From: Escherichia coli
Lineage (GTDB): Bacteria > Pseudomonadota > Gammaproteobacteria > Enterobacterales > Enterobacteriaceae
Assembly (NCBI RefSeq): GCF_048403405.1
Contig: NZ_CP183129.1
Direction: 5' to 3' (one strand)
Length of the DNA stretch: 64,000 bases
Part shown: positions 20,417 to 43,979 of the stretch, piece after piece
Layout: every line of letters begins with the position of its first letter
Position numbering within the stretch: the first letter of the stretch is position 1
Position numbers and translations under genes: made by a program
The notes under the pieces: model-generated
The model's input: only the letters and a program-made list of their open reading frames with translations
What the model was told of the DNA's origin: nothing
Database searches by the model: none

Positions 20417-20441
20417 AAAAAGGCGCTGAAGCGCCTTTTTA
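20417..20441. terminator. bidirectional rho-independent terminator between convergent nudE and mrcA
   Basis: aaaaaggcgctgaagcgccttttt hairpin with A/T runs on both sides. Confidence 0.6.
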
Positions 20442-20442
20442 A

Positions 20443-27323: not shown

Positions 27324-27379
27324 TTCTGGCTTTATATACACTCGTCTGCGGGTACAGTAATTAAGGTGGATGTCGCGTT

Positions 27380-28468
27380 ATGGAGAGGATTGTCGTTACT
27401 CTCGGGGAACGTAGTTACCCAATTACCATCGCATCTGGTTTGTTTAATGAACCAGCTTCATTCTTACCGCTGAAATCGGGCGAGCAGGTCATGTTGGTTA
27501 CCAACGAAACCCTGGCTCCTCTGTATCTCGATAAGGTCCGCGGCGTACTTGAACAGGCGGGTGTTAACGTCGATAGCGTTATCCTCCCTGACGGCGAGCA
27601 GTATAAAAGCCTGGCTGTACTCGATACCGTCTTTACGGCGTTGTTACAAAAACCGCATGGTCGCGATACTACGCTGGTGGCGCTTGGCGGCGGCGTAGTG
27701 GGCGATCTGACCGGCTTTGCGGCGGCGAGTTATCAGCGCGGTGTACGTTTCATTCAAGTCCCGACGACGTTACTGTCGCAGGTCGATTCCTCCGTTGGCG
27801 GCAAAACTGCGGTCAACCATCCCCTCGGTAAAAACATGATTGGCGCGTTCTACCAGCCTGCTTCAGTGGTGGTGGATCTCGACTGTCTGAAAACGCTTCC
27901 CCCGCGTGAGTTAGCGTCGGGGCTGGCAGAAGTCATCAAATACGGCATTATTCTTGACGGTGCGTTTTTCAACTGGCTGGAAGAGAATCTGGATGCGTTG
28001 TTGCGTCTGGACGGTCCGGCAATGGCGTACTGTATTCGCCGTTGTTGTGAACTGAAGGCAGAAGTTGTCGCCGCCGACGAGCGCGAAACCGGGTTACGTG
28101 CTTTACTGAATCTGGGACATACCTTTGGTCATGCCATTGAAGCTGAAATGGGGTATGGCAATTGGTTACACGGTGAAGCGGTCGCTGCGGGTATGGTGAT
28201 GGCGGCGCGGACGTCGCAACGTCTCGGGCAGTTTAGTTCTGCCGAAACGCAGCGTATTATAACCCTGCTCACGCGGGCTGGGTTACCGGTCAATGGGCCG
28301 CGCGAAATGTCTGCGCAGGCGTATTTACCGCACATGCTGCGTGACAAGAAAGTCCTTGCGGGAGAGATGCGCTTAATTCTTCCGTTGGCAATTGGTAAGA
28401 GTGAAGTTCGCAGCGGCGTTTCGCACGAGCTTGTTCTTAACGCCATTGCCGATTGTCAATCAGCGTAA
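27380..28468 (+). CDS. aroB: 3-dehydroquinate synthase
   Basis: 362-aa ORF matching E. coli AroB. Confidence 0.95.
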
Positions 28469-28559
28469 CAACAAGAAAGGTCAGGCCGCTTATCAAGCGG
28501 TCTATTAGCTTCAGGTTAATTGCAACGTGGTAAGCATTAACCTTTTAGTGGGGTGTTAA

Positions 28560-29846
28560 ATGGATGAATTCAAACCAGAAGACGAGCTGAAACCCGATCC
28601 CAGCGATCGTCGTACTGGTCGTTCTCGTCAATCTTCTGAACGTTCTGAGCGTACTGAACGTGGCGAACCGCAGATCAATTTTGATGATATTGAACTTGAT
28701 GACACTGACGATCGCCGTCCGACTCGTGCGCAAAAAGAGCGCAATGAGGAACCGGAACTCGAAGAAGAAATTGACGAATCCGAAGATGAAACCGTGGATG
28801 AAGAGCGCGTAGAGCGTCGTCCGCGTAAGCGCAAAAAAGCAGCCAGTAAACCCGCTTCTCGTCAGTATATGATGATGGGCGTCGGCATTCTGGTTCTCCT
28901 GCTGTTGATCATCGGTATCGGTTCTGCGCTAAAAGCCCCCTCGACCTCTTCCAGCGATCAAACCGCGTCTGGCGAGAAGAGTATTGATCTTGCTGGCAAT
29001 GCGACCGATCAGGCGAATGGCGTGCAGCCAGCGCCGGGAACCACGTCTGCGGAAAATACTCAGCAGGATGTTTCTCTGCCGCCGATCTCTTCTACGCCGA
29101 CTCAAGGGCAAACCCCGGCGGCAATGGATGGTCAACAACGTGTTGAAGTGCAGGGTGACCTGAACAATGCGCTGACCCAGCCACAAAATCAGCAACAGTT
29201 GAACAATGTGGCGGTCAATTCCACGTTGCCGACTGAACCCGCGACTGTCGCGCCTGTTCGCAATGGCAATGCATCGCGTGACACGGCGAAAACGCAAACC
29301 GCTGAACGTCCGGCCACTACGCGTCCAGCTCGCCAGCAGGCGGTGATTGAACCGAAAAAACCGCAAGCAACCGTGAAAACGGAGCCGAAGCCGGTAGCAC
29401 AGACGCCGAAGCGTACTGAACCAGCTGCTCCTGTGGCAAGCACGAAGGCACCGGCTGCGACTTCTACGCCAGCACCAAAAGAGACGGCGACTACGGCTCC
29501 AGTACAGACGGCATCCCCGGCGCAAACCACGGCAACACCAGCCGCTGGAGGGAAGACCGCAGGTAATGTTGGTTCGTTGAAATCGGCACCGTCCAGCCAT
29601 TACACTCTGCAGCTGAGCAGTTCCTCTAACTACGACAACCTGAACGGTTGGGCGAAGAAAGAGAATCTGAAAAACTACGTTGTCTATGAAACGACGCGTA
29701 ATGGTCAGCCGTGGTATGTCCTGGTTTCTGGCGTGTACGCTTCGAAAGAAGAGGCGAAAAAAGCGGTATCTACATTGCCAGCAGATGTTCAGGCCAAAAA
29801 CCCGTGGGCGAAACCGCTGCGTCAGGTACAGGCCGATCTGAAGTAA
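28560..29846 (+). CDS. damX: cell division protein DamX (SPOR domain)
   Basis: 428-aa ORF; acidic N-terminus, TM helix, long P/T/A/Q-rich linker, C-terminal SPOR domain. Confidence 0.92.
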
Positions 29847-29952
29847 TCAAGGTTATCTCCCGCAATGGTTTATCGTTGCGGGAGTTGCCTGAAGCGCTGG
29901 ATGCTGTCGGAGCTTTCTCCACAGCCGGAGAAGGTGTAATTAGTTAGTCAGC

Positions 29953-30789
29953 ATGAAGAAAAATCGCGCTTTTTTGAAGTGGGCAGGGGGCAAGTATCCC
30001 CTGCTTGATGATATTAAACGGCATTTGCCCAAGGGCGAATGTCTGGTTGAGCCTTTTGTAGGTGCCGGGTCGGTGTTTCTCAACACCGACTTTTCTCGTT
30101 ATATCCTTGCCGATATCAATAGCGACCTGATCAGTCTCTATAACATTGTGAAGATGCGTACTGATGAGTACGTACAGGCCGCACGCGAGCTGTTTGTTCC
30201 CGAAACAAATTGCGCCGAGGTTTACTATCAGTTCCGCGAAGAGTTCAACAAAAGCCAGGATCCGTTCCGTCGGGCGGTACTGTTTTTATATTTGAACCGC
30301 TACGGTTACAACGGCCTGTGTCGTTACAATCTGCGCGGTGAGTTTAACGTGCCGTTTGGCCGCTACAAAAAACCCTATTTCCCGGAAGCAGAGTTGTATC
30401 ACTTCGCTGAAAAAGCGCAGAATGCCTTTTTCTATTGTGAGTCTTACGCCGATAGCATGGCGCGCGCAGATGATGCATCCGTCGTCTATTGCGATCCGCC
30501 TTATGCGCCGCTGTCTGCGACTGCCAACTTTACGGCGTATCACACAAACAGTTTTACGCTTGAACAACAAGCGCATCTGGCGGAGATCGCCGAAGGTCTG
30601 GTTGATCGCCATATTCCAGTGCTGATCTCCAATCACGATACGATGTTAACGCGTGAGTGGTATCAGCGCGCAAAATTGCATGTCGTCAAAGTTCGACGCA
30701 GTATAAGCAGCAACGGCGGCACACGTAAAAAGGTGGACGAACTGCTGGCTTTGTACAAACCAGGAGTCGTTTCACCCGCGAAAAAATAA
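29953..30789 (+). CDS. dam: DNA adenine methyltransferase (GATC)
   Basis: 278-aa ORF with DPPY catalytic motif ([10 protein letters not shown]) and FxGxG SAM site. Confidence 0.96.
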
Positions 30790-30806
30790 TTCTCAAGGAG
30801 AAGCGG

Positions 30807-31484
30807 ATGAAACAGTATTTGATTGCCCCCTCAATTCTGTCGGCTGATTTTGCCCGCCTGGGTGAAGATACCGCAAAAGCCCTGGCAGCTGGCGCTGATG
30901 TCGTGCATTTTGACGTCATGGATAACCACTATGTTCCCAATCTGACGATTGGGCCAATGGTGCTGAAATCCTTGCGTAATTACGGCATTACCGCCCCTAT
31001 CGACGTACACCTGATGGTGAAACCTGTCGATCGCATTGTGCCTGATTTCGCTGCCGCTGGTGCCAGCATCATTACCTTTCATCCAGAAGCCTCCGAGCAT
31101 GTTGACCGCACGCTGCAACTGATTAAAGAAAATGGCTGTAAAGCGGGTCTGGTATTTAACCCGGCGACACCTCTGAGCTATCTGGATTACGTGATGGATA
31201 AGTTGGATGTGATCCTGCTGATGTCCGTCAACCCTGGTTTCGGCGGTCAGTCTTTCATTCCGCAAACACTGGATAAACTGCGCGAAGTACGTCGTCGTAT
31301 CGACGAGTCTGGCTTTGACATTCGACTGGAAGTGGACGGTGGCGTGAAGGTGAACAACATTGGCGAAATCGCTGCGGCGGGCGCGGATATGTTCGTCGCC
31401 GGTTCGGCAATCTTCGACCAGCCAGACTACAAAAAAGTCATTGATGAAATGCGCAGTGAACTGGCAAAGGTAAGTCATGAATAA
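30807..31484 (+). CDS. rpe: ribulose-phosphate 3-epimerase
   Basis: 225-aa ORF matching E. coli Rpe. Confidence 0.95.
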
Positions 31485-32235
31485 GTTTGAAGATATTCGC
31501 GGCGTCGCTTTTGATCTCGATGGTACGCTGGTGGACAGTGCTCCTGGCTTGGCTACCGCAGTAGATATGGCGCTGTATGCGCTGGAGTTGCCCGTCGCAG
31601 GTGAAGAACGCGTTATAACCTGGATTGGTAACGGCGCAGATGTTCTGATGGAGCGCGCATTGACCTGGGCGCGTCAGGAACGTGCGACTCTGCGTAAAAC
31701 AATGGGTAAACCGCCCGTTGATGACGACATTCCGGCAGAAGAACAGGTACGTATTCTGCGTAAATTGTTCGATCGCTACTATGGCGAGGTTGCCGAAGAG
31801 GGGACGTTTTTGTTCCCGCACGTTGCCGATACGCTGGGCGCATTGCAGGCTAAAGGCCTGCCGTTGGGCCTGGTCACCAACAAACCGACGCCGTTCGTCG
31901 CGCCGCTGCTCGAAGCCTTAGATATCGCCAAATACTTCAGCGTGGTTATCGGCGGTGATGATGTGCAAAACAAAAAACCGCATCCGGACCCGCTGTTACT
32001 GGTGGCTGAGCGGATGGGAATTGCCCCACAACAGATGCTGTTTGTTGGCGACTCACGCAATGATATTCAGGCAGCAAAAGCGGCAGGTTGCCCATCAGTT
32101 GGCTTAACCTACGGATATAACTACGGCGAGGCTATCGATCTCAGCCAGCCTGATGTAATTTATCAGTCTATAAATGACCTTCTGCCCGCATTAGGGCTTC
32201 CGCATAGCGAAAATCAGGAATCGAAAAATGACTAA
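31477..32235 (+). CDS. gph: phosphoglycolate phosphatase
   Basis: 252-aa ORF, HAD motif [10 protein letters not shown]. Confidence 0.94.
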
Positions 32236-33232
32236 GCCCATCGTTTTTAGTGGCGCACAGCCCTCAGGTGAATTGACCATTGGTAACTACATGGGTGCGC
32301 TGCGTCAGTGGGTAAACATGCAGGATGACTACCATTGCATTTACTGTATCGTTGACCAACACGCGATCACCGTGCGCCAGGATGCACAGAAGCTGCGTAA
32401 AGCGACGCTGGATACGCTGGCCTTGTATCTGGCTTGTGGTATCGATCCTGAGAAAAGCACCATTTTTGTTCAGTCCCACGTGCCGGAACATGCGCAGTTA
32501 GGCTGGGCATTGAACTGCTATACCTACTTCGGCGAACTGAGCCGCATGACGCAGTTTAAAGATAAATCTGCGCGTTATGCCGAGAACATCAATGCTGGTC
32601 TGTTTGACTATCCGGTGCTGATGGCTGCGGACATCCTGCTGTATCAAACTAATCTGGTACCGGTGGGTGAAGACCAGAAACAGCACCTGGAACTGAGCCG
32701 CGATATCGCCCAGCGTTTCAACGCGCTGTATGGCGAGATCTTTAAAGTGCCGGAGCCGTTTATTCCGAAATCTGGCGCGCGCGTAATGTCGCTGCTGGAG
32801 CCGACCAAAAAGATGTCCAAGTCTGACGATAACCGCAATAACGTTATCGGCCTGCTGGAAGATCCGAAATCGGTAGTGAAGAAAATCAAACGCGCGGTCA
32901 CCGACTCCGACGAGCCGCCGGTAGTTCGCTACGACGTGCAGAACAAAGCGGGCGTTTCCAACCTGCTGGATATCCTTTCTGCTGTAACGGGCCAGAGCAT
33001 TCCGGAACTGGAAAAACAGTTCGAAGGCAAGATGTATGGTCATCTGAAAGGTGAAGTGGCTGATGCCGTTTCCGGTATGCTGACTGAATTGCAGGAACGC
33101 TATCACCGTTTCCGCAACGATGAAGCCTTCCTGCAACAGGTGATGAAAGATGGCGCGGAAAAAGCCAGCGCGCACGCTTCCCGTACGCTAAAAGCGGTGT
33201 ACGAAGCGATTGGTTTTGTGGCGAAGCCGTAA
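32228..33232 (+). CDS. trpS: tryptophan--tRNA ligase
   Basis: 334-aa ORF with class I KMSKS motif. Confidence 0.96.
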
Positions 33233-33246
33233 TTTAACATTAATGC

Positions 33247-33273
33247 CAAAAACCGGGGAAACCCGGTTTTTTT
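33247..33273. terminator. rho-independent terminator downstream of trpS
   Basis: aaaaaccggggaaacccggttttttt. Confidence 0.75.
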
Positions 33274-33392
33274 ATCCTCTTTTTGCAATAATCCGAAAAA
33301 ATGTGAAGCGCCTCGCCGTTTCCACATCTCGCAGTTGCCACTTATCTTCATTTTTATGAAGATATAAATATTCACTTTATTGAAAATTTACT

Positions 33393-34298
33393 ATGCGTCG
33401 AACGTTTATCAAAAAAGAAGGCGTCGTCATCACGACACTGGCCCGTTATTTGTTGGGTGAAAAGTGCGGTAATCGACTGAAAACCATAGATGAGCTGGCA
33501 ACTGAATGCCGTTCATCCGTTGGCCTGACGCAGGCCGCGTTGAAAACGCTGGAATCAAGCGGAGCGATACGGATAGAACGCCGTGGGCGTAATGGCAGTT
33601 ATCTGGTGGAAATGGATAACAAAGCGCTGCTGAGTCATGTGGATATCAACAATGTGGTGTGCGCGATGCCCTTGCCCTATACCCGTTTGTACGAAGGCCT
33701 GGCGAGCGGATTGAAAGCTCAGTTTGATGGTATTCCTTTTTACTATGCGCACATGCGCGGCGCGGATATTCGCGTGGAGTGTTTACTTAACGGCGTGTAT
33801 GACATGGCGGTTGTTTCCCGACTGGCGGCGGAAAGTTATCTCACGCAAAAAGGGTTATGCCTCGCGCTGGAGCTGGGGCCGCATACCTACGTTGGCGAGC
33901 ACCAGTTGATTTGCCGTAAAGGCGAGTCCGCAAACGTGAAGCGCGTGGGGCTGGATAACCGTTCGGCGGATCAGAAAATCATGACCGATGTCTTTTTTGG
34001 CGATAGTGATGTGGAACGTGTCGATCTCTCTTATCACGAGAGTTTACAACGCATTGTTAAAGGCGATGTTGATGCGGTGATCTGGAACGTGGTGGCGGAA
34101 AACGAACTGACCATGCTGGGATTAGAAGCGACGCCGCTCACAGACGATCCGCGATTTTTACAGGCCACCGAAGCCGTAGTTTTGACGCGAGTCGATGATT
34201 ACCCAATGCAACAATTGCTGCGTGCAGTTGTTGATAAACAGGCCCTGCTTGCCCATCAACAACGAGTGGTCAGTGGGGAACAGGAACCCAGTTATTAA
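33393..34298 (+). CDS. yhfZ: putative transcriptional regulator YhfZ
   Basis: 301-aa ORF in conserved position after trpS. Confidence 0.8.
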   Translation: MRRTFIKKEGVVITTLARYLLGEKCGNRLKTIDELATECRSSVGLTQAALKTLESSGAIRIERRGRNGSYLVEMDNKALLSHVDINNVVCAMPLPYTRLYEGLASGLKAQFDGIPFYYAHMRGADIRVECLLNGVYDMAVVSRLAAESYLTQKGLCLALELGPHTYVGEHQLICRKGESANVKRVGLDNRSADQKIMTDVFFGDSDVERVDLSYHESLQRIVKGDVDAVIWNVVAENELTMLGLEATPLTDDPRFLQATEAVVLTRVDDYPMQQLLRAVVDKQALLAHQQRVVSGEQEPSY

Positions 34299-34314
34299 AC
34301 GAAAGGCATCTGAA

Positions 34315-34677
34315 ATGGAAACCAGACTCAACCTGCTTTGCGATGCAGGCGTTATTGATAAGGACATCTGCAAAGGCATGATGCAGGTCGTCAATGTCCT
34401 GGAAACAGAGTGCCATCTACCGGTGCGCAGTGAGCAAGGAACGATGGCGATGACACATATGGCGAGTGCACTGATGCGCAGTCGCCGTGGTGAAGAAATA
34501 GAGCCGCTGGATGACGAATTGCTGGCAGAGCTGGCGCAATCCACTCACTGGCCAGCCATTTTACAATTGCATCAGGTGTTGTTGAAGGAATTCGCGCTGG
34601 AAGTTAACCCGTGTGAAGAAGGCTATTTGCTGGCCAACCTTTATGGATTATGGATGGCTGCTAACGAAGAGGTTTGA
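34315..34677 (+). CDS. yhfY: uncharacterised protein YhfY
   Basis: 120 aa from METRLNLLCDAGV (internal start of the 160-aa ORF). Confidence 0.75.
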   Translation: METRLNLLCDAGVIDKDICKGMMQVVNVLETECHLPVRSEQGTMAMTHMASALMRSRRGEEIEPLDDELLAELAQSTHWPAILQLHQVLLKEFALEVNPCEEGYLLANLYGLWMAANEEV

Positions 34678-34760
34678 AGCTCCCGACAAATCCACGTCGC
34701 ATAATCTAAATATTCAGAAAAATGAATATTTAATTCAAGGAACAGAAACGAGGCAACAAG

Positions 34761-35924
34761 ATGTTTGTAGAAGCATTGAAACGCCAGAACCCGGCGCTAA
34801 TTTCCGCCGCACTAAGCTTGTGGCAAAAGGGCAAGATCGCCCCGGACAGCTGGGTGATCGACGTGGATCAGATACTGGAAAACGGTAAGCGGCTGATTGA
34901 GACGGCGCGGCTTTACGGCATTGAACTGTATCTGATGACTAAGCAGTTTGGTCGTAATCCGTGGCTGGCGGAAAAACTGCTGCCATTAGGCTACAGCGGC
35001 ATTGTGGCGGTGGATTACAAAGAGGCGCGAGTCATGCGCCGCGCCGGTTTGCCGGTGGCGCATCAGGGGCATCTGGTACAAATCCCTTGTCATCAGGTTG
35101 CTGACGCCGTTGCACAGGGCACCGACGTCATCACCGTGTTTACTCTCGACAAAGCGCGGGAAGTTTCTGCGGCAGCGGTGAAGGCCGGACGTGTGCAGTC
35201 TGTGCTGCTCAAAGTTTATAGCGACGATGATTTTCTTTATCCGGGGCAGGAGAGCGGTTTTGTACAGCATTCGCTGCACGAGGTGGTTGCTGATATTAAG
35301 AAACTGCCGGGGCTGCATTTAGCCGGACTAACCCATTTCCCTTGCCTGCTTTGGGATGAGGCTGCCGGGAAAGTTTTGCCGACACCGAATCTTCACACGC
35401 TGGTACAAGCACGGGATCAACTGGCGAAATCTGGTATTGCGATTGAGCAACTGAACGCGCCTTCAGCGACCAGCTGCACTTCGCTGCCATTGCTGGCGGA
35501 ATACGGTGTGACTCATGCCGAACCCGGTCATGCGCTGACGGGCACTATTCCGGCAAACCAGCAGGGCGATCAGCCTGAACGTATCGCGATGCTCTGGTTA
35601 AGTGAAATCTCCCATCATTTTCGTGGCGACAGCTACTGCTACGGCGGCGGTTACTACCGTCGTGGTCACGCGCAACATGCGCTGGTGTTTACGCCAGAAA
35701 ATCAAAAGATTACTGAAACCAATCTCAAAACTGTGGATGACAGCAGTATCGACTACACCCTGCCGCTGGCAGGCGAGTTTCCGGTAAGCAGTGCAGTAGT
35801 GCTCTGTTTTCGCACGCAGATTTTTGTCACCCGTAGCGATGTGGTGCTGGTGTCTGGTATTCATCGTGGCGAACCGGAAATCGTCGGTCGTTATGACAGC
35901 CTCGGCAACCCTCTGGAGGCGTAA
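34761..35924 (+). CDS. yhfX: alanine racemase-fold PLP protein YhfX
   Basis: 387-aa ORF matching E. coli YhfX. Confidence 0.85.
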   Translation: MFVEALKRQNPALISAALSLWQKGKIAPDSWVIDVDQILENGKRLIETARLYGIELYLMTKQFGRNPWLAEKLLPLGYSGIVAVDYKEARVMRRAGLPVAHQGHLVQIPCHQVADAVAQGTDVITVFTLDKAREVSAAAVKAGRVQSVLLKVYSDDDFLYPGQESGFVQHSLHEVVADIKKLPGLHLAGLTHFPCLLWDEAAGKVLPTPNLHTLVQARDQLAKSGIAIEQLNAPSATSCTSLPLLAEYGVTHAEPGHALTGTIPANQQGDQPERIAMLWLSEISHHFRGDSYCYGGGYYRRGHAQHALVFTPENQKITETNLKTVDDSSIDYTLPLAGEFPVSSAVVLCFRTQIFVTRSDVVLVSGIHRGEPEIVGRYDSLGNPLEA

Positions 35925-37151
35925 ATGGCGCGATTTGTGGTGTTAGTGATTGATAGCTTTGGCGTAGGGGCAATGAAAGATGTCACGTTGGTGCGTCCGC
36001 AGGATGCCGGGGCGAATACCTGTGGTCACATCCTGAGCCAGTTGCCGCATTTGCAGCTATCAGCGCTGGAGAAGCTGGGGCTAATCAACGCATTGGGTTA
36101 TGCACCAGGTGATATGCAACCGTCAGATTCCGCAACCTGGGGGGTGGCAGAGCTGCAACATGAAGGTGGCGATACCTTTATGGGGCATCAGGAAATTTTA
36201 GGCACGCGCCCGTTACCGCCGCTGCGGATGCCTTTTCGCGATGTGATTGACCGTGTTGAGCAGGCATTAGTATCCGCCGGTTGGCAGGTGGAGCGCCGTG
36301 GCGATGATCTGCAATTTCTGTGGGTCAATCAGGCGGTTGCGATTGGCGATAATCTCGAGGCGGATTTAGGCCAGGTCTATAACATCACCGTCAATCTCTC
36401 TGTGATCTCTTTTGACGACGCAATCAAAATTGGTCGTATCGTGCGTGAGCAGGTACAGGTCGGTCGGGTCATTACATTTGGCGGCCTGTTAACTGACAGT
36501 CAACGCATTCTCGATGCCGCAGAAAGTAAAGAAGGGCGCTTTATTGGCATTAATGCGCCGCGTTCAGGCGCTTATGACAACGGCTTCCAGGTCGTGCATA
36601 TGGGCTACGGTGTTGATGAAAAAGTGCAGGTGCCGCAAAAACTGTATGAAGCGGGCGTGCCAACCGTGCTGGTGGGTAAGGTGGCGGATATCGTCAGCAA
36701 TCCTTATGGCGTGAGCTGGCAAAACCTGGTGGATAGCCAGCGGATTATGGATATCACCCTCGACGAATTTAACACGCATCCGACGGCGTTTATTTGCACC
36801 AATATCCAGGAAACCGACCTCGCTGGTCACGCGGAAGACGTCGCACGTTATGCCGAACGTTTGCAGGTCGTTGACCGTAACCTTGCCCGGCTTATTGAGG
36901 CGATGCAGCCAGATGATTGCCTGGTCGTGATGGCGGATCACGGTAACGATCCGACCATTGGTCACAGCCACCATACCCGCGAAGTGGTGCCAGTGCTGGT
37001 TTATCAGCAAGGGATGGTCGCTACGCAGCTCGGTGTGCGCACCACGCTTTCTGATGTGGGGGCTACCGTGTGTGAATTTTTCCGTGCGCCACCGCCACAA
37101 AATGGTCGCTCTTTTCTTTCCTCCCTCCGGTTTGCAGGAGACACCCTATGA
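35925..37151 (+). CDS. yhfW: phosphopentomutase-like metalloenzyme YhfW
   Basis: 408-aa ORF, start abuts yhfX stop. Confidence 0.85.
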
Positions 37152-38026
37152 GTATTGATCCGACGGGTTACACCCTCGCCCATGAGCATCTGCATATTGA
37201 TCTCTCCGGCTTTAAAAACAACGTGGACTGCCGCCTTGATCAGTATGCGTTCATTTGCCAGGAGATGAACGACCTGATGGCCCAGGGCGTGCGTAATGTG
37301 ATTGAGATGACCAACCGTTACATGGGGCGAAATGCGCAATTTATGCTCGATGTGATGCACGAAACTGGCATCAACGTGGTGGCCTGTACCGGTTATTACC
37401 AGGATGCGTTTTTCCCGCAACATGTGGCGACCCGCAGCGTACAGGAACTGGCGCAGGAGATGGTCGATGAAATTGATCAGGGTATCGATGGCACGGAACT
37501 GAAAGCCGGGATCATCGCGGAGATCGGCTCCAGCGAAGGGAAGATTACGCCGCTGGAAGAGAAGGTGTTTATTGCCGCCGCGCTGGCACATAACCAGACC
37601 GGACGCCCGATCTCCACGCATACGTCGTTCAGCACGATGGGGCTGGAACAACTGGCTCTGTTGCAAGCCCACGGAGTTGATCTTTCGCGCGTCACCGTTG
37701 GTCACTGCGATCTGAAAGACAACCTCGACAACATTTTGAAGATGATCGATCTCGGCGCGTATGTGCAGTTCGACACCATCGGCAAGAACAGTTACTACCC
37801 GGACGAAAGGCGCATTGCGATGCTCCACGCGCTACGTGACCGTGGTTTGCTGAACCGCGTCATGCTGTCGATGGATATTACGCGCCGCTCCCATTTAAAA
37901 GCCAACGGTGGTTATGGCTATGACTATTTATTGACCACCTTTATTCCGCAATTGCGCCAGTCAGGATTCAGTCAGGCCGATGTGGATGTGATGTTACGTG
38001 AAACTCCCTCTCAATTTTTCCAATAA
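37148..38026 (+). CDS. php: phosphotriesterase homology protein (amidohydrolase superfamily)
   Basis: 292-aa ORF starting [20 protein letters not shown] (metal-binding HxH). Confidence 0.9.
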
Positions 38027-38036
38027 GGACAGACTC

Positions 38037-38390
38037 ATGAAAAAGATTGGTGTTGCAGGCTTACAGCGTGAGCAGATTAAAAAAACCATTGAAGCGACGG
38101 CTCCTGGCTGTTTTGAAGTTTTCATTCACAACGACATGGAAGCGGCAATGAAAGTCAAATCCGAGCAACTGGATTACTACATCGGCGCGTGTAATACCGG
38201 TGCGGGCGCGGCATTGTCGATTGCCATCGCGGTGATTGGCTATAACAAAAGTTGCACCATTGCCAAACCAGGCATTAAAGCGAAAGACGAACATATCGCC
38301 AAAATGATCGCCGAAGGGAAAGTGGCGTTTGGGCTTTCCGTTGAGCACGTCGAACACGCGATTCCGATGCTGATTAACCATCTGAAATAA
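38037..38390 (+). CDS. yhfU: uncharacterised protein YhfU
   Basis: 117 aa from MKKIGVAGLQREQ. Confidence 0.78.
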   Translation: MKKIGVAGLQREQIKKTIEATAPGCFEVFIHNDMEAAMKVKSEQLDYYIGACNTGAGAALSIAIAVIGYNKSCTIAKPGIKAKDEHIAKMIAEGKVAFGLSVEHVEHAIPMLINHLK

Positions 38391-38401
38391 AAGGCACGAC
38401 T

Positions 38402-39706
38402 ATGGATCTGTATATTCAGATTATCGTGGTGGCGTGCCTGACGGGTATGACATCGCTTCTGGCGCATCGCTCGGCGGCTGTTTTTCATGACGGTATCCGC
38501 CCGATCCTGCCACAACTGATTGAAGGCTATATGAACCGTCGCGAGGCGGGGAGTATCGCTTTTGGTCTGAGCATTGGTTTTGTGGCCTCGGTGGGGATCT
38601 CGTTTACCCTGAAAACCGGGCTGCTCAACGCATGGTTACTCTTTCTTCCTACCGATATCCTCGGCGTACTGGCGATAAACAGCCTGATGGCGTTTGGTCT
38701 TGGCGCTATCTGGGGCGTGTTGATCCTTACTTGCCTGTTGCCGGTAAACCAGCTGCTGACCGCGCTACCGGTGGATGTATTAGGTAGCCTGGGGGAATTA
38801 AGCTCACCGGTGGTTTCAGCTTTTGCACTGTTCCCGTTGGTGGCGATTTTCTACCAGTTTGGCTGGAAGCAAAGTCTGATCGCCGCCGTGGTGGTACTGA
38901 TGACCCGTGTGGTGGTAGTGCGCTATTTCCCGCATCTCAATCCGGAATCCATCGAAATCTTTATTGGCATGGTGATGCTGCTGGGGATCGCGATAACTCA
39001 CGACCTGCGTCATCGTGATGAAAATGATATTGATGCCAGCGGGCTTTCGGTGTTTGAAGAACGCACGTCGCGGATTATCAAAAACTTACCGTATATCGCT
39101 ATTGTCGGGGCGCTGATTGCCGCCGTTGCCAGCATGAAGATTTTTGCTGGCAGTGAAGTGTCGATCTTCACACTGGAGAAAGCATATTCCGCAGGCGTAA
39201 CGCCGGAACAATCACAAACGCTGATTAACCAGGCAGCTCTGGCGGAATTTATGCGCGGGCTGGGTTTTGTACCGTTGATTGCCACCACCGCGTTAGCCAC
39301 TGGTGTGTATGCAGTTGCGGGCTTTACCTTTGTTTATGCGGTGGGCTATCTCTCGCCGAATCCGATGGTTGCAGCGGTATTAGGCGCAGTGGTTATTTCG
39401 GCGGAAGTCCTGCTGCTTCGTTCGATCGGCAAATGGCTGGGGCGCTACCCGTCGGTGCGTAATGCGTCGGATAACATCCGTAACGCCATGAATATGCTGA
39501 TGGAAGTGGCGTTGCTGGTCGGTTCGATTTTCGCAGCAATTAAAATGGCGGGTTATACCGGATTTTCTATCGCAGTTGCCATTTACTTCCTCAACGAATC
39601 CCTGGGCCGTCCGGTACAGAAAATGGCGGCACCGGTCGTGGCAGTAATGATCACCGGTATTCTGCTGAATGTTCTTTACTGGCTTGGCCTGTTCGTTCCG
39701 GCTTAA
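38402..39706 (+). CDS. yhfT: inner membrane protein YhfT
   Basis: 434-aa polytopic membrane ORF. Confidence 0.85.
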   Translation: MDLYIQIIVVACLTGMTSLLAHRSAAVFHDGIRPILPQLIEGYMNRREAGSIAFGLSIGFVASVGISFTLKTGLLNAWLLFLPTDILGVLAINSLMAFGLGAIWGVLILTCLLPVNQLLTALPVDVLGSLGELSSPVVSAFALFPLVAIFYQFGWKQSLIAAVVVLMTRVVVVRYFPHLNPESIEIFIGMVMLLGIAITHDLRHRDENDIDASGLSVFEERTSRIIKNLPYIAIVGALIAAVASMKIFAGSEVSIFTLEKAYSAGVTPEQSQTLINQAALAEFMRGLGFVPLIATTALATGVYAVAGFTFVYAVGYLSPNPMVAAVLGAVVISAEVLLLRSIGKWLGRYPSVRNASDNIRNAMNMLMEVALLVGSIFAAIKMAGYTGFSIAVAIYFLNESLGRPVQKMAAPVVAVMITGILLNVLYWLGLFVPA

Positions 39707-39717
39707 GGAAGGCACCT

Positions 39718-40803
39718 ATGAAGACGTTTCCTCTGCAAAGCCTGACGATTATTGAGGCGCAGCAAAAGCAGTTTGCGCTGGTGGACACGATTTGCCGCCA
39801 TTTTCCTGGTAGCGAATTTCTTACCTGCGGTGATTTGGGATTAACGCCGGGACTGAATCAACCGCGCATTACCCAGCGTGTGGAACAGGTGCTGGCTGAT
39901 GCATTTCACGCACAGGCTGCGGCGCTGGTACAGGGCGCGGGTACTGGCGCGATCCGTGCGGCGTTGGCGGCTTTGCTCAAACCGGGGCAGCGTCTTCTGG
40001 TGCATGACGCGCCGGTTTACCCGACGACTCAGGTCATTATTGAGCAGATGGGGCTGACGCTTATCACTGCTGATTTCAATGACCTGTTGGCACTGAAGCA
40101 GGTTGTCGACGAGCAACAACCAGATGCCGCGCTGGTGCAGCATACGCGCCAGCAGCCGCAGGACGGGTACATTCTGGCAGATGTGCTGGCAACGTTGCGC
40201 TCGGCTGGCGTTCCTGCATTAACCGATGACAACTATGCGGTGATGAAGGTAGCGCGAATTGGCTGCGAATGCGGGGCAAATGTCTCGACTTTTTCCTGCT
40301 TCAAGCTGTTTGGGCCGGAGGGTGTTGGCGCGGTGGTAGGCGATGCTGATGTTATTAACCGTATTCGCGCCACGCTCTACTCCGGCGGCAGCCAGATTCA
40401 GGGCGCTCAGGCGTTGGAAGTCTTGCGTGGGCTGGTGTTTGCGCCAGTGATGCACGCGGTGCAGGCGGGGGTATCTGAACGGTTGCTGGCCTTGCTCAAC
40501 GGTGGTGCAGTTCCGGAAGTGAAAAGCGCCGTCATTGCCAATGCACAGTCGAAGGTGTTGATTGTCGAGTTTCATCAGCCGATTGCCGCCAGAGTGCTGG
40601 AAGAGGCGCAAAAGCGCGGTGCCTTGCCTTACCCGGTTGGTGCAGAGTCGAAATATGAAATTCCACCGCTCTTTTATCGACTTTCCGGAACGTTTCGCCA
40701 GGTGAATCCGCAACTCGAACATTATGCGATTCGTATTAACCCAAATCGCAGCGGTGAAGAGACGGTGCTGCGGATTTTGCGTGAGAGTATTGCCAGTATT
40801 TAA
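39718..40803 (+). CDS. yhfS: PLP-dependent enzyme-like protein YhfS
   Basis: 361-aa ORF matching E. coli YhfS. Confidence 0.85.
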   Translation: MKTFPLQSLTIIEAQQKQFALVDTICRHFPGSEFLTCGDLGLTPGLNQPRITQRVEQVLADAFHAQAAALVQGAGTGAIRAALAALLKPGQRLLVHDAPVYPTTQVIIEQMGLTLITADFNDLLALKQVVDEQQPDAALVQHTRQQPQDGYILADVLATLRSAGVPALTDDNYAVMKVARIGCECGANVSTFSCFKLFGPEGVGAVVGDADVINRIRATLYSGGSQIQGAQALEVLRGLVFAPVMHAVQAGVSERLLALLNGGAVPEVKSAVIANAQSKVLIVEFHQPIAARVLEEAQKRGALPYPVGAESKYEIPPLFYRLSGTFRQVNPQLEHYAIRINPNRSGEETVLRILRESIASI

Positions 40804-40843
40804 TCTTGTGCATGATGTTTTCGAAAAGAATGCAGAAATAAAT

Positions 40844-40869
40844 ACGCCCTCGGGTAACCCCGAGGGCGT
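40844..40869. terminator. bidirectional terminator between convergent yhfS and yhfL
   Basis: acgccctcgggtaaccccgagggcgt hairpin. Confidence 0.6.
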
Positions 40870-40909
40870 CAGGCAATTAAACCGGTGTTAGCCGATTTCT
40901 GTCAGAGAC

Positions 40910-41077
40910 TTACTGTGCAGTAGGACCGCAACCGCCAATGATTTTAGAAATAGAAATTGCCGGGTGCAGCAGGTAGTCGTAAGAGCAGTTCTTATCACGG
41001 TTTTCAATATGACCAGTACATGCAGTTAACGTAGCCAGTACTGCGCCTACCAGTGCAACTTTAATAAATTTGTTCAT
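40910..41077 (-). CDS. yhfL: small lipoprotein YhfL
   Basis: 55-aa ORF MNKFIKVALVGAVLATLTACTGH... with lipobox LTAC; not in the ORF track (below length cutoff), read manually. Confidence 0.8.
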   Translation of the reverse strand: MNKFIKVALVGAVLATLTACTGHIENRDKNCSYDYLLHPAISISKIIGGCGPTAQ

Positions 41078-41293
41078 TTACATTCCCTATGTATTATATA
41101 TTAATTAATATTCATTGATTATATGAATATAAGCAGACTGCTCATTAAGAACGATACAGGAATATTCAATTAGCGTCAGTGAGCGATTGATTTAATTTTG
41201 TAAGTCGCTGTAACGGTGAATATAACCCATTAGCAGACAATATTTATTAAGGGGGTATCTTTTTATCTGCTGAATATATAAAGAGAGTTGTAA

Positions 41294-41320
41294 ACGAAAA
41301 AGGCCAGACTTCTCTGGCCC
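41294..41320 (-). terminator. rho-independent terminator downstream of cysG
   Basis: ggccagacttctctggcc hairpin followed by T-run on minus strand. Confidence 0.65.
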
Positions 41321-41328
41321 TGGTTAAA

Positions 41329-42702
41329 TTAATGGTTAGAGAACCAGTTCAATTTATCGCGCAGGCCAACAACCCGACCAATAATAATTAGCGATGGACT
41401 GTTCATTTGCTGCGCCAGTTCGCCCAGCTGCGTGAGCGTACCGTCAATCACGCGCTGCGTGACTGCCGTTCCGTTTTCGACAATTGCCACCGGCATTTCG
41501 CCAGGCATACCGTGTTCAATCAGCTTTTGCTGAATAGTCGCAGCCTGATTCAGCCCCATATAAAACACCAGCGTCTGTTTTTCTGCCGCCAGGTTTTCCC
41601 AGTCCAGTTCGCCACCGGTTTTTAAGTGTCCGGTAATTAAGCGTACGCTCTGGGCATAATCGCGATGCGTGAGCGGAATACCCGAATAGGCAGAGCAACC
41701 AGAAGCTGCGGTAATACCCGGAACCACCGAGAACGGAATACCCGCGTTGCACAGTGTTTCCAGCTCTTCGCCACCACGGCCAAAAATAAACGGATCGCCA
41801 CCTTTCAGCCGCACCACGCGTTTGCCTTTTTGCGCTTCCCGCAGCAGGATCTGGTTTATCTCTTCCTGCGGTACGCAGTGGTATCCCGCGCGTTTGCCGA
41901 CGAAAACGCGATCCGCATCGCGGCGTACCAGATTCATAATATCGTCAGAAACCAGACGGTCGTAGACCACCACATCTGCCTGCTGAATTTGTTGCAGTCC
42001 TTTTAGTGTCAGCAGCCCGGCATCGCCCGGACCTGCGCCAACCAGCACCACTTCACCGCGATGGTCGAGCGGTTCGTTGATTAACTGTTCGGTCGTTTCA
42101 GTAATGGCTTTCTGATCGTTGTTTGCCAGCGACTGCGCCAGGCGGTCATTAACGAACAGTTTTTCCCAGAAACGGCGACGCTCACCCATCGTGGCGAACT
42201 GTTGTTTCACTCGCCCGCGTAATTGCCCGGCGTATTTCGCCACCTGGCCCAGATGCAACGGCAGCAGTGATTCAAGTTTTTCGCGTAACAGGCGCGCCAG
42301 AACCGGAGAGGTGCCGCCAGAGGAGACCGCGACCATTAGCGGTGAGCGGTCAATAATCGACGGCATAATAAAGCTGGCGGCTTTCGGCGCATCGACCACG
42401 TTACAGAAGATGCGACGAGCTTCAGCGGCTTCACTGACGCGCTGGTTAAGCGCGTCATCATCCGTCGCAGCAATTGCCAGCCAGCAGGTGTCGAGAAGGC
42501 TTTCATCAAATGGCCCTTCGACGAGGGTTAACATGCCTGCATCTGCCCATGCGGTGAACTGTGGAATAAACGCTAATGCATTCACCGTTAAGCGAGCGCC
42601 TGCGTCTAACAGCAACCTTGCTTTGCGTTCCGCGACATCACCACCGCCGACAATCAGACAGTCGCGATCGCGTAATTGGCAAAATATAGGCAAATGATCC
42701 AC
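41329..42702 (-). CDS. cysG: siroheme synthase (multifunctional)
   Basis: 457-aa ORF matching E. coli CysG. Confidence 0.95.
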
Positions 42703-42720
42703 GTAAAAACCCCTTAGTAA

Positions 42721-43527
42721 TTAACCGGCAGCTGTTTCAGTTTGATTAAATTTGTCCGCAACCGGACGATTCGCTTTCGGCGTAGCATACCAATAACCCA
42801 ATCCCATGAATACGGCACCTGATAAAGTATTACCCAGCGTCACCCACAGCAGGTTATGACCAATACCCGCCAGCGTGTAGGCTTCGCTGTGGTTGCCAAA
42901 CCAGGAGAGGGCGAACAGCGTCATGTTAGCGATGGAGTGCTCGTAGCCGGACGCGATAAATGCCAGCAGACACCACCAGATAGCGATAAATTTCGCCGCC
43001 CCTTCAGTGCGCAGCGCCATCCAGATTGCCAGGCAAACCAGCCAGTTACACAATGCACCTTTGAAGAACAGTACCATTGCCGGTGCAGTGGTTTTTGCCA
43101 GCGCGACGGAGTGAACGATGCTGGTATCTACCGGCAGCAGGCTACCGCCACCCCAGCTATAGAGCATGGCGACAAAGACGGAACCGACCAGGTTACCCAG
43201 CCAGGTTTGCGGCAGGATTGCCCACATTTGCCCGTGGCTGATAGTGCCCGCTTTCACCCCAAAGGTGAGGAACATGGTGTGTCCGGTGAACAGTTCAGAA
43301 CCAGCAATAATGACCAACGTTAAGGCGATACCAAAGGTCGCGCCCATCACCAGAGGACGTACGGACGGGTCGAGCAAATTACCGAGCGTGAAAATCAGGA
43401 TGATCCCAAGACCCACATACGCGCCCGCCATGGCGGAGCTGACCCAGAAGCCGAGCGGGTTATTTGCCGACAGGCGTGCAATGCGCGCAGCGTTAGCCGC
43501 ACACTTATTAATAGTGTCTGTAAACAT
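42721..43527 (-). CDS. nirC: nitrite transporter NirC (formate/nitrite transporter family)
   Basis: 268-aa membrane ORF. Confidence 0.94.
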   Translation of the reverse strand: MFTDTINKCAANAARIARLSANNPLGFWVSSAMAGAYVGLGIILIFTLGNLLDPSVRPLVMGATFGIALTLVIIAGSELFTGHTMFLTFGVKAGTISHGQMWAILPQTWLGNLVGSVFVAMLYSWGGGSLLPVDTSIVHSVALAKTTAPAMVLFFKGALCNWLVCLAIWMALRTEGAAKFIAIWWCLLAFIASGYEHSIANMTLFALSWFGNHSEAYTLAGIGHNLLWVTLGNTLSGAVFMGLGYWYATPKANRPVADKFNQTETAAG

Positions 43528-43611
43528 TTGATTATCCTTTAAAAAATAAAAACAAAAAATAAAACAAAAAGTTTAAAAAATGTCCTGCAATATACCGAAG
43601 GTTATTACAGG

Positions 43612-43643
43612 ACCATGCAAAAAGGGGAGGCATTGCGCCTCCC
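43612..43643 (-). terminator. intercistronic hairpin/terminator between nirD and nirC
   Basis: gggaggcgcaatgcctcccc hairpin followed by T-run on minus strand. Confidence 0.5.
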
Positions 43644-43652
43644 GTTAAAACA

Positions 43653-43979
43653 TTAACCGCGTAGCTGCACCACGCCGTCTTTCACTCGCGCGTCGTAATG
43701 CTTGACGGAAAACTGTTCGTCTTCCATGCACAAGCCGTCGCTTAAGCGAAAACGCTGTTTTTTCAGCGGGCTGGCGACCCACAGCTCGCCCTGGTGTTCC
43801 GCAATCAGCCCGCGTGACAGCACGCTGGACTCGAAGAACGGATCGATGTTGCTGATCGCAAACACCTGGTCGCTGTGATACGGGCGGAAAATCGCTACCT
43901 GCTCGTCACCTAACAGCGCGCAGACGCCGGTTTCAGGCAGGATGTCATCGATTTTGCAGATGTCTTTCCACTGGCTCAT
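43653..43979 (-). CDS. nirD: nitrite reductase small subunit
   Basis: 108-aa Rieske-like ORF overlapping nirB stop. Confidence 0.95.
   Translation of the reverse strand: MSQWKDICKIDDILPETGVCALLGDEQVAIFRPYHSDQVFAISNIDPFFESSVLSRGLIAEHQGELWVASPLKKQRFRLSDGLCMEDEQFSVKHYDARVKDGVVQLRG

Follow-up and report, generated by a model that had tools for sequence, protein, structure and literature searches.

The yhfZYXW-php-yhfUTS cluster of Escherichia coli most likely imports and degrades a phosphorylated, amine-bearing sugar-like nutrient. We assign a probability of roughly 0.5 to the whole reading: a horizontally mobile catabolic module made up of two regulated units, whose pathway would handle an esterified or lactonised amino-sugar or polyol phosphate under regulation by YhfZ and the control of CRP and the PTS. 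Gene content, the conservation of folds and residues, operator footprints and co-occurrence were observed; from these we infer the catalytic steps, the identity of the substrate and the protein that binds the palindromes. Uptake and catabolism of a modified amino or phospho compound had been proposed in the first-pass annotation of this DNA, and our analysis supports the proposal. What is added here, for a known cluster, is a set of testable parts, such as the operators, the probable PRD domain of YhfY, the fold of YhfU and the recurrent neighbors.

The window (the whole 64-kb stretch of DNA analysed) is 100% identical to E. coli MS 69-1, in whose RefSeq annotation the same eight genes appear. 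The cluster is a known, already annotated E. coli cluster, and is intact. The eight co-directional + strand ORFs reported between 33393 and 40803 were recovered, with coordinates that agree with the MS 69-1 annotation:

yhfZ, 33393-34298, + strand: regulator combining an HTH_41 winged helix with a ligand-type domain, YhfZ_C
yhfY, 34315-34677, + strand: probable stand-alone PRD domain protein of 120 aa
yhfX, 34761-35924, + strand: fold-type III (alanine-racemase-fold) PLP enzyme
yhfW, 35925-37151, + strand: phosphopentomutase-like metallo-phosphomutase
php, 37148-38026, + strand: binuclear-metal amidohydrolase of the phosphotriesterase family
yhfU, 38037-38390, + strand: DUF2620 protein with the RpiB/LacAB fold, Cys-x-Thr-Gly motif kept
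yhfT, 38402-39706, + strand: polytopic membrane protein, presumed permease
yhfS, 39718-40803, + strand: fold-type I PLP enzyme, accessory to the module

The intergenic gaps from yhfZ to yhfS are, in order, 16, 83, 0, −4 (an overlap), 10, 11 and 11 bp. The mechanical ORF for yhfY, which starts at 34195 and encodes 160 aa, is over-extended; the annotated start is 34315 (120 aa). YhfY and YhfU had been left undescribed earlier; the former is probably a PRD domain protein, and the latter has the RpiB fold. With the exception of YhfY, all of the proteins (7/8) matched curated families far above chance (Pfam E values from 1e-19 to 1e-180; NCBIfam), and the earlier family assignments agreed with the Pfam, NCBIfam and PDB comparisons. 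The frames are uninterrupted, as had been claimed, which is accompanied by the curated-family matches of seven proteins, low dN/dS and invariant catalytic residues.

The first-pass annotation was supported only in part: its families, its frames and the idea of uptake and catabolism stood, whereas its single operon between two terminators was not fully borne out, as the 3′ hairpin faces yhfL and a near-invariant palindrome precedes yhfX. The noncoding features are as follows:

trpS intrinsic terminator, upstream boundary of the cluster, 33247-33273, + strand: stem AAAAACCGGG/CCCGGUUUUU, then a U-run
CRP-like site, predicted, 33302-33317, + strand: TGTGA-N6-TCGCC, ~84 bp upstream of the yhfZ ATG
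operator-like palindrome O1, 33343-33364, + strand: TATCTTCA-N6-TGAAGATA
operator-like palindrome O2, 33368-33387, + strand: ATATTCA-N6-TGAAAAT
operator-like palindrome O3, 34707-34732, + strand: TAAATATTCA-N6-TGAATATTTA, 29 bp upstream of the yhfX ATG
GC-rich hairpin between the convergent yhfS and yhfL, 40844-40869, − strand: T-tract on the − strand only

The hairpin at 33247-33273 (−15.1 kcal/mol, z −3.6, U7 tail) is the canonical trpS terminator, and is kept in Escherichia and Citrobacter. The one at 40844-40869 has an 11-bp stem with 9 GC pairs (−25.6 kcal/mol on the − strand, −23.8 on the + strand). Because the U-tract lies on the − strand, it is the canonical yhfL terminator; it may also stop + strand transcripts, as a bidirectional terminator.

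The CRP-like site matches the CRP consensus perfectly in its left half and at 3/5 positions in its right half. Among 12 genera its TGTGA never changes, nor does the TC of the right half, while the flanks vary (alignment A7). The 9-nt arms of O1 are 100% complementary, and the palindrome, which belongs to the TTCA-N6-TGAA motif family, is kept in 12 genera. O2 lies 24 bp from O1 and ends 6 bp before the yhfZ ATG; the tandem pair is present in most Enterobacteriaceae loci. O3 has 10-nt arms that are 100% complementary, and is near-invariant in 14 genera, with unconserved surrounding DNA (alignment A8). The palindrome consensus common to both units is ATATTCA-N6-TGAAGAT. Three of the four occurrences of TTCA-N6-TGAA in the 64-kb window fall in the two cluster promoter regions, and over 85 loci the same holds for 102 of 174 matches, in 2.5% of the DNA. 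A promoter scan found no sigma-70 promoter on the + strand before yhfZ or yhfX, a point against the proposed reading. A RegulonDB-derived table lists yhfZY separately from the remaining six genes. Since the 83-bp gap between yhfY and yhfX holds a conserved palindrome, a single eight-gene operon is neither the sole nor the best reading, and the cluster probably consists of two regulated units, yhfZY and yhfXW-php-yhfUTS.

YhfZ matched PF14502 and PF14503 in Pfam and passed the equivalog model NF041241 (YhfZ_full, 374.1 bits against a cut-off of 260), which makes it a GntR-type regulator. The structure of its C-terminal domain is PDB 2OZZ, and its gene has a dN/dS of 0.028 against a K-12-like strain. 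E. coli YhfY gave a weak match to TIGR03582 (E 7e-6, 26.4 bits, under the cut-off of 69.35) and no PF00874 (PRD) match in the Pfam search, and firmicute orthologues in the same gene position do match PF00874. RefSeq labels the protein in the K-12-like strain 'PRD domain protein'. H48-x3-A52-x2-R55 and E101 are invariant among the orthologues, while a second His is retained in Firmicutes and replaced by Asn in gamma-proteobacteria. Judged by its sequence, YhfY is probably a single-domain PRD protein, and its His48 is invariant.

The N-terminal barrel of YhfX matched PF01168 (76.7 bits against 24.1), with a further match to PF21279, and its structure is PDB 4KBX. The PLP lysine K61 is invariant in 76 sequences, in agreement with fold type III. 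The nearest relatives of the family profile are alanine racemases (E 4e-5), followed by D-threonine aldolase (5e-3); D-3-hydroxyaspartate aldolase is also touched. Assignment of YhfX as the ornithine racemase Orr was not supported (NF040742, a weak match of 31.3 bits against a cut-off of 480). YhfW matched PF01676, and PDB phosphopentomutases at E 3e-30. Residues D10, D83-T84, D298, H302, D338-H339 and H350 are conserved in 61 sequences and include alkaline-phosphatase-type metal ligands and a Thr nucleophile, roles that we presume from the B. cereus PPM. The two DeoB models were matched under their cut-offs (NF003766, 178.9 against 256; TIGR01696, 142.1 against 341.2) and do not support a DeoB identity. 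The RefSeq name 'phosphopentomutase' stems from NF009049, which YhfW passed end to end with 735 bits and which we regard as modelling the YhfW subfamily.

Php matched PF02126 (E 2e-143, 477.6 bits against a gathering score of 22.4) and NF007373 (646 bits against 486), and is represented by PDB 1BF6 and 4LEF. The metal ligands H12, H14, E125, H158, H186 and D243 are invariant in 65 sequences, as are K213, Y216 and R246. Neither the organophosphate hydrolase OPH (NF041153, 99.7 bits against a cut-off of 500) nor a phospho-furanose lactonase (NF045706, a weak match of 96.5 bits against 630) was accepted as its identity. Php reportedly cleaves phosphorylated glyceryl acetates, with a requirement for the substrate phosphate, and the lactones assayed by Raushel's group are reportedly not hydrolysed, which speaks against the proposed pathway. 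YhfS matched PF22475 and PF00155, corresponds to PDB 4J8L, and has D170 and K196 invariant among its orthologues.

YhfU has the RpiB/LacAB fold. Its C52 and T54 align with C66 and T68 of the catalytic C-G-T-G loop of RpiB; C52, located in a glycine-rich loop where a helix has its N-terminal end, is invariant, and position 54 is Thr or Ser. The profile reached RpiB structures at E 0.2-0.6 only, and the Pfam search returned DUF2620 alone, with no match to LacAB_rpiB. The protein, at 117 aa, is ~30 residues shorter than RpiB/LacAB and lacks the C-terminal phosphate-binding helices. An orthologue alignment showed no conserved His or Asp at the positions expected for RpiB His99 and Asp9. Because of the missing helices and these unconserved positions, YhfU may not be an isomerase. 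It was rejected as a PTS EIIB, which would have the EIIB fold with a phospho-Cys in the first beta-alpha loop.

YhfT matched PF10797 (E 1e-180) and belongs to a rare family, whose members in a set of 1.84 billion proteins form 305 clusters at 50% identity. Sequence similarity to PTS EIIC families was not found: 0/20 family members matched EIIC Pfam models at E up to 10, no PDB chain was matched, and hhalign against UlaA gave a probability of 0.1. yhfU lies directly 5′ of yhfT in 81 of 84 loci.

Against the K-12-like strain, dN/dS was 0.008-0.20 for seven genes, yhfS not among them, with the lowest value for yhfT (0.008); YhfS is 96.4% identical in amino acids. The catalytic residues do not vary among 28-76 orthologues; metal ligands, nucleophile and PLP lysines are kept even where identity falls to 33-45%. 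The module was found in Enterobacterales, Vibrionaceae, Sebaldella, Bacillota (Clostridia, Bacillales) and metagenomes, with shuffled gene order. yhfU-yhfT-yhfX are present in every locus, while yhfS is optional: no Yersinia-group or Vibrionaceae locus has it, nor do 4/9 Bacillota/Fusobacteriota loci. yhfW is missing from some Yersinia, as are php, yhfZ and yhfY from some Enterovibrio; neither the hydrolase nor the mutase step is therefore universally needed. The conserved gene set contains no kinase.

Several accessory genes adjoin the module elsewhere: an HPr gene immediately 3′ of the cluster in three Clostridia loci and an enzyme I gene in a further one, a nagB equivalog directly downstream in two Bacillales families (293.6 bits against a cut-off of 236.9), a cellobiose/chitobiose-type PTS EIIABC at 9 loci, and a secreted CBM5/12 (chitin-binding) protein at 5 loci (Photobacterium and one Enterobacter sp.). 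The HPr and enzyme I genes, together with the invariant PRD His, connect the module with the PTS, and the nagB, chitobiose-type PTS and CBM5/12 neighbors connect it with amino sugars. None of these genes adjoins the E. coli cluster, and, being present in a minority of loci, they could be coincidental.

In the pathway that we propose, YhfZ would bind the three palindromes through the consensus ATATTCA-N6-TGAAGAT, and would sense the inducer with its C-terminal domain. Two of the sites overlap the presumed yhfZ promoter and 5′ end, which would allow autoregulation, and the third lies just upstream of yhfX. Catabolite and PTS control may act through the predicted CRP-like site and YhfY, whose His48 might be phosphorylated by HPr or an EIIB. 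YhfT would be the permease, with YhfU as its partner. The substrate would be a sugar, sugar acid or polyol that is phosphorylated, bears an amine and contains an ester or lactone bond. Relatives of Php and the mutase family of YhfW act on phosphorylated substrates, as judged from family and structure comparisons. Php may open or remove the carboxylate ester; YhfX, the only enzyme never absent, would racemise, epimerise or eliminate at the amino-bearing carbon; and YhfW would move the phosphate to a position accepted by central metabolism. YhfU, as an RpiB-like isomerase with catalytic Cys/Thr, may turn an aldose phosphate into a ketose phosphate, and YhfS, when present, could transaminate the amino-acid-like product or carry out an elimination on it. 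A literature search covering 8 million papers returned only peripheral screen matches and no pathway paper. The earlier statement that no substrate or pathway has been established holds insofar as no validated pathway was found, and in view of the reported activity of Php on phosphorylated glyceryl acetates it applies to the physiological substrate only.

An unlikely alternative is that YhfT and YhfU form a new PTS-like group translocator, in which HPr, via an EIIA, phosphorylates Cys52 of YhfU and the substrate is phosphorylated on entry. Import would then supply the phosphate needed by Php and YhfW. The lack of a kinase in the module, the near-constant yhfU-yhfT adjacency, the placement of the invariant Cys52, the PRD protein, and the HPr and enzyme I genes beside some clusters are consistent with it, and the ula system, a PTS followed by a phospho-lactonase, is a precedent. 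We regard as doubtful, and improbable on balance, an amino-aldonolactone or amino-aldonate phosphate substrate, such as a glucosaminate derivative of oxidised chitin or chitosan. Php would be a lactonase or deacylase, and YhfX and YhfS D-amino-acid ammonia-lyases yielding a 2-keto-3-deoxy sugar acid phosphate for Eda. In favor of this, Php weakly matches the phospho-furanose lactonase model, some relatives in the PTE family are phospho-pentonolactonases, the PLP lyase of the Salmonella dga operon acts on D-glucosaminate-6-P, the YhfX profile touches the two aldolases named above, and the CBM5/12 protein and chitobiose-type PTS stand beside Vibrionaceae loci. However, the weak lactonase match of Php is far under the cut-off, the conserved set lacks an aldolase and a KDG kinase, the phosphomutase and RpiB-like protein would be superfluous, and the nagB neighbor indicates GlcN-6-P, not KDPG.

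It is very unlikely that the substrate is glycerol or ribitol phosphate esterified with an amino acid such as D-alanine, derived from teichoic acids or aminoacyl-phosphatidylglycerol, from which Php would free the amino acid, with YhfX racemising it and YhfW converting sn-glycerol-1-P to sn-glycerol-3-P. Alanine racemases are nearest to YhfX, the mutase family moves phosphate between hydroxyls, Php reportedly cleaves acetyl esters of glycerol-3-phosphate only when the phosphate is present, and the hosts include gut, marine and Gram-positive bacteria. The reasoning is purely chemical, however; no support comes from neighboring genes (glycerol-P dehydrogenase, GlpQ, D-Ala enzymes), and the RpiB-like protein and the nagB and chitin-related neighbors are left unexplained. 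Little probability likewise attaches to a cryptic, decaying E. coli remnant, or to a system for organophosphate detoxification or nucleoside salvage, which the product names (phosphotriesterase, phosphopentomutase) would imply. No growth phenotype is known, the screen matches are peripheral, RefSeq calls YhfW a phosphopentomutase, and 324 of 5426 complete E. coli genomes (~6%) have no match, with ~7% lacking most of the cluster. Against decay, 5059 of the 5426 keep at least 80% of the query, purifying selection is strong with invariant catalytic residues, and the operator and CRP-like footprints are conserved; against the names, the OPH and DeoB equivalog models score far under cut-off, and the mutase name rests on NF009049.

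The K-12 locus (b3376-b3383) has the same genes in the same order, encoding proteins 95-99.8% identical, four of which have crystal structures (2OZZ, 4KBX, 1BF6/4LEF and 4J8L). The cluster here abuts yhfL-cysG directly, whereas K-12 has frlABCDR between; the trpS-yhfZ spacer is 160 bp, compared with 290 bp in K-12. Synonymous divergence of the cluster from the K-12-like strain is 2-6 times that of flanking genes. The ula regulon is controlled by a dedicated repressor and CRP, and its hydrolase acts on a phosphorylated cyclic ester. It resembles the yhf cluster in having a transporter, then a metal-dependent hydrolase, then sugar-phosphate rearranging enzymes, but has a recognisable PTS EIIC/EIIB/EIIA and no PLP enzymes or mutase. 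YhfT and YhfU have no sequence similarity to UlaA and UlaB, and UlaG is a metallo-beta-lactamase-fold enzyme, whereas Php is of the PTE family.

The NagA/NagB and Aga systems likewise pair an amidohydrolase-superfamily hydrolase, acting on a phosphorylated amino sugar, with an aldose-ketose isomerase/deaminase. Php is not NagA, though, YhfU has the RpiB fold and not that of NagB or SIS, and nag/aga have no counterpart of the two PLP enzymes and the phosphomutase. RpiB/LacAB proteins are ~150 aa, compared with the 117 aa of YhfU, which is always paired with a membrane protein. Phosphotriesterase-like and phospho-sugar lactonases (cog1735) share with Php the (beta/alpha)8 binuclear-metal scaffold and its ligands; the bridging ligand of phosphotriesterases is a carboxylated Lys, and that of Php is Glu E125. 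The EF_0829/AHA_3910 cluster (TIGR03577-TIGR03582) comprises a stand-alone PRD protein, small soluble and membrane proteins, a PLP enzyme and an amidohydrolase. YhfY weakly matched its PRD model, and YhfU and YhfT matched none of its NCBIfam models. On sequence grounds, it is a parallel system, distinct from the yhf cluster.

Over the query, the window shows 100% identity to the chromosome of a human colon isolate, E. coli MS 69-1. The eight-gene yhf cluster follows aroK-aroB-damX-dam-rpe-gph-trpS (+ strand), and the coordinates and intact reading frames assigned to it in the first-pass annotation are correct. The cluster and its boundaries comprise the following features:

33247-33273, + strand: intrinsic terminator of trpS (-15.1 kcal/mol, U7 tail)
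33393-34298, + strand: yhfZ
34315-34677, + strand: yhfY (120 aa)
34761-35924, + strand: yhfX
35925-37151, + strand: yhfW
37148-38026, + strand: php
38037-38390, + strand: yhfU
38402-39706, + strand: yhfT
39718-40803, + strand: yhfS
40844-40869: very stable hairpin with its T-tract on the minus strand
40910-41077: yhfL, convergent to yhfS

The intergenic spacings, in order from yhfZ to yhfS, are 16, 83, 0, -4, 10, 11 and 11 bp. Seven of the eight proteins matched curated families far above chance, and YhfY gave a weak match to a PRD model. A 160-aa ORF starting at 34195 was rejected as yhfY, being a mechanical over-extension. Solved structures exist for four products (YhfZ C-terminal domain, 2OZZ; YhfX, 4KBX; Php, 1BF6 and 4LEF; YhfS, 4J8L). 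Of the two terminators previously proposed to bound the cluster, the upstream one stands, as the + strand terminator of trpS. The T-tract of the downstream hairpin lies on the minus strand, which identifies the hairpin as the terminator of yhfL, the convergent gene; on yhfS transcripts it would act at most bidirectionally.

Among 5426 complete genomes of E. coli, 5059, or about 93%, carry the module, with at least 80% of the stretch present. The dN/dS ratios relative to a K-12-like strain, computed for the seven genes other than yhfS, ranged from 0.008 (yhfT) to 0.20 (yhfX); the YhfS protein is 96.4% identical to its K-12-like counterpart. Residue conservation was judged over 28-76 orthologues per protein, down to 33-45% identity. 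The residues invariant or nearly so were H12, H14, E125, H158, H186 and D243 in Php; D10, D83-T84, D298, H302, D338-H339 and H350 in YhfW; K61 in YhfX; and D170 and K196 in YhfS. The yhf cluster is thus not a decaying remnant.

The cluster is more divergent from the K-12-like strain (DNA identity 92.6-97.0%, dS 0.11-0.21) than the flanking genes at 25163-33232 and 40910-46519 (97.4-99.5%, dS 0.016-0.083), and only 7 of 5102 matching genomes showed at least 99% identity over it, which together suggest an old allele that recombines separately from its flanks. The fructoselysine operon frlABCDR, about 5.3 kb and located between yhfS and yhfL in K-12, is absent from the spacer 40804-40909, so that yhfS directly adjoins yhfL-cysG; the megablast matches that span this junction in one piece (H1-H6) likewise lack frl. 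The trpS-yhfZ spacer (33233-33392) measures 160 bp, compared with 290 bp in K-12. A paper describes BIME/REP repeats in K-12 in the region upstream of yhfZ; this repeat appears to be missing here. In E. coli B strain C2566 (NZ_CP014268.2, match H7), the cluster matched in three pieces covering about 8.5 kb for a 7.6 kb query, which suggests that this laboratory strain carries about 0.9 kb of inserted DNA.

The two non-coding gaps of the cluster contain three palindromes, each built on a TTCA-N6-TGAA core:

33343-33364: palindrome O1, before yhfZ
33368-33387: palindrome O2, before yhfZ
34707-34732: palindrome O3, 29 bp upstream of the yhfX ATG

The core occurs four times in the 64-kb window, against about 1.2 expected by chance. 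Across 85 related loci, the cluster promoter regions make up 2.5% of the sequence and hold 102 of the 174 core occurrences, a roughly 50-fold enrichment, with the motif found in Vibrio, Photobacterium and Sebaldella too. In alignments of 12 and 14 genera, the palindromes form near-invariant islands within otherwise unconserved spacers, and an invariant TGTGA-N6-TC at 33302-33317 resembles a CRP half-site. From these sequence patterns we infer that the palindromes are YhfZ binding sites and that the yhfZ promoter may be CRP dependent. Two regulated units, yhfZY and yhfXW-php-yhfUTS, probably fit better than the single eight-gene operon originally assumed. The sole other exact match to the core in the window, at 54305-54318 (TTCACCCTGGTGAA), has a GC-rich centre unlike those of the cluster operators and is therefore probably a chance match. 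A promoter scan returned no + strand promoter before yhfZ; a conserved TTGCCA at 33335-33340 was considered as a -35 element, but no good -10 lies at the proper spacing. An Rfam scan of 33000-41400 revealed no riboswitch, RAT or leader element, its sole match (E 0.24) being due to chance.

YhfY aligns with stand-alone PRD proteins, and its orthologues match PF00874. Its H48-x3-A-x2-R motif does not vary; Firmicutes retain the second PRD histidine, and gamma-proteobacteria have Asn in its place. PRD domains are targets of phosphorylation by HPr or EIIB, so YhfY is most likely a link between YhfZ and the PTS.

The comparison of modules covered 80 loci in genomes together with eight contigs from metagenomes or assemblies. 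The 80 loci were found with a 5-sequence YhfT alignment, biasing them toward relatives at least 54% identical, while remoter loci came from an encoding-contig lookup; 20- and 9-sequence YhfT alignments contained no conserved stretch. With shuffled gene orders, the module occurs in Enterobacterales, Vibrionaceae, Sebaldella, Clostridia and Bacillales. Its core comprises yhfU, yhfT and yhfX, present in every locus with enough flanking sequence. The other genes are not found everywhere: php, yhfZ and yhfY are absent from Enterovibrio, yhfW from six of seven Yersinia-group loci, and yhfS from all Yersinia-group and Vibrionaceae loci and about half of the Bacillota loci. The conserved gene set contains no kinase. 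Natural reduced modules include the Yersinia loci L039, L041-L044, L047 and L048, several species lacking yhfW, and the Enterovibrio loci L060, L067 and L070, which retain yhfU-yhfT-yhfX-yhfW alone.

An HPr gene lies directly downstream of the cluster in three Clostridia loci and an enzyme I gene in a fourth; a nagB equivalog takes this position in Thalassobacillus and Melghirimyces. Nine loci adjoin a cellobiose/chitobiose-type PTS EIIABC, usually with DUF7916 and sometimes with its own YhfZ paralogue, and five adjoin a secreted CBM5/12 protein. A Cof-type sugar phosphatase and periplasmic acid phosphatases are neighbours in single lineages.

Among individual loci, EIIB-EIIC-EIIA genes of this type with DUF7916 accompany the cluster in Photobacterium L063 (about 14000-21270) and L064, and also in L051, L071 and L072. 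A second YhfZ-family regulator stands with the PTS genes of L063 and L064, raising the possibility that regulators of the YhfZ type control PTS modules too. The secreted protein (600-770 aa, in L059 at 13942-16125, L040, L063, L064 and L085) carries a CBM5/12 chitin-binding module at its C-terminus and has an N-terminal part without assignment; its hosts are Photobacterium and one Enterobacter sp. In a distant cluster without yhfW (L003, 11815-16353), yhfX is followed by three paralogous ATP-grasp enzymes and an MFS transporter.

The RefSeq product name of YhfW, 'phosphopentomutase', is based on NF009049, an end-to-end match of 735 bits. YhfW scored below the cut-offs of both DeoB equivalog models, and the name is probably an over-annotation. 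On model cut-offs, we rejected the assignments of YhfW as a true phosphopentomutase and of Php as an organophosphate hydrolase. Nemmara et al. 2018 reportedly found that Php acts on phosphorylated glyceryl acetates and requires the phosphate. Literature searches found no validated pathway for the cluster. Mentions were at the level of screens or peripheral: a screen for peptide resistance featured YhfZ, yhfW turned up in a screen for antibiotic survival and in a proteome table, and ΔyhfS was named in a biofilm screen.

We propose, at a probability of about 0.5, that the cluster is a YhfZ-regulated catabolic module, under CRP/PTS control, for a sugar, sugar acid or polyol that bears a phosphate and an amine and contains an ester or lactone bond. 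YhfT and YhfU would import the compound, Php would cleave a carboxylate ester, YhfX would act at the amino carbon and YhfW would reposition the phosphate. YhfU might also isomerise the resulting aldose phosphate, and YhfS could serve as an optional transaminase or lyase. The earlier reading, uptake and catabolism of a modified amino or phospho compound, was largely right, with the corrections described here.

Several alternatives were weighed. A PTS-like group translocator operating via YhfU Cys52 seems unlikely. The YhfT profile had no match in the PDB, the Pfam EIIC families or UlaA, and YhfU had none to UlaB, leaving the PTS-permease idea without sequence support. We consider it quite unlikely that YhfT and YhfU form an unrecognised uptake system. 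In that scheme, a rare permease would be obligatorily accompanied by a truncated RpiB-fold partner, and the invariant Cys of this partner would either accept a PTS phosphoryl group or bring about substrate isomerisation at the membrane. Such a system would be under split PRD/HTH control by YhfY and YhfZ, and the pathway it fed, so far undescribed, would be for an amino-sugar(-acid) or polyol phosphate in esterified or lactonised form, originating from chitin, peptidoglycan or teichoic acid. An amino-aldonolactone route is very doubtful, and a D-alanyl-glycerol-phosphate route improbable. It is equally improbable that the genes are a cryptic remnant or perform the functions implied by their product names; the prevalence of the stretch, the low dN/dS and the retained catalytic residues speak against a remnant.

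As a feature, the cluster is already known: annotations of every E. coli genome include it, and it has long been an orphan. Eight conserved genes of the best-studied bacterium have yet to be given a physiological role, despite crystal structures for four of their products. The present analysis contributes footprints of the predicted operators and of a CRP-like site, an RpiB fold for DUF2620, the interpretation of YhfY as a PRD protein, the division of the module into core and accessory genes, and its amino-sugar and PTS neighbours. Its presence in most E. coli and its spread over Proteobacteria, Fusobacteriota and Bacillota suggest that its substrate is probably a real nutrient, one met repeatedly in gut and marine habitats. 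The predicted operator, the CRP/PTS link, the DUF2620 fold with its candidate catalytic residue, the core set and the neighbours narrow the substrate search and make this orphan pathway more directly testable.

YhfT belongs to a rare family: at 50% identity, it amounts to 305 clusters in a set of 1.84 billion proteins. In 81 of the 84 loci, the gene directly upstream of yhfT is yhfU. The YhfU fold was predicted by AlphaFold2 with a 27-sequence alignment (pLDDT 96), and a single-sequence model (pLDDT 44) was discarded. YhfU falls about 30 residues short of the length of RpiB and lacks its other catalytic positions, and we therefore file the modelled protein as RpiB-fold rather than as a proven isomerase; in weak profile matches and in an hhalign comparison, its invariant Cys52-x-Thr54-Gly maps to the catalytic Cys66-Gly-Thr68-Gly of RpiB.
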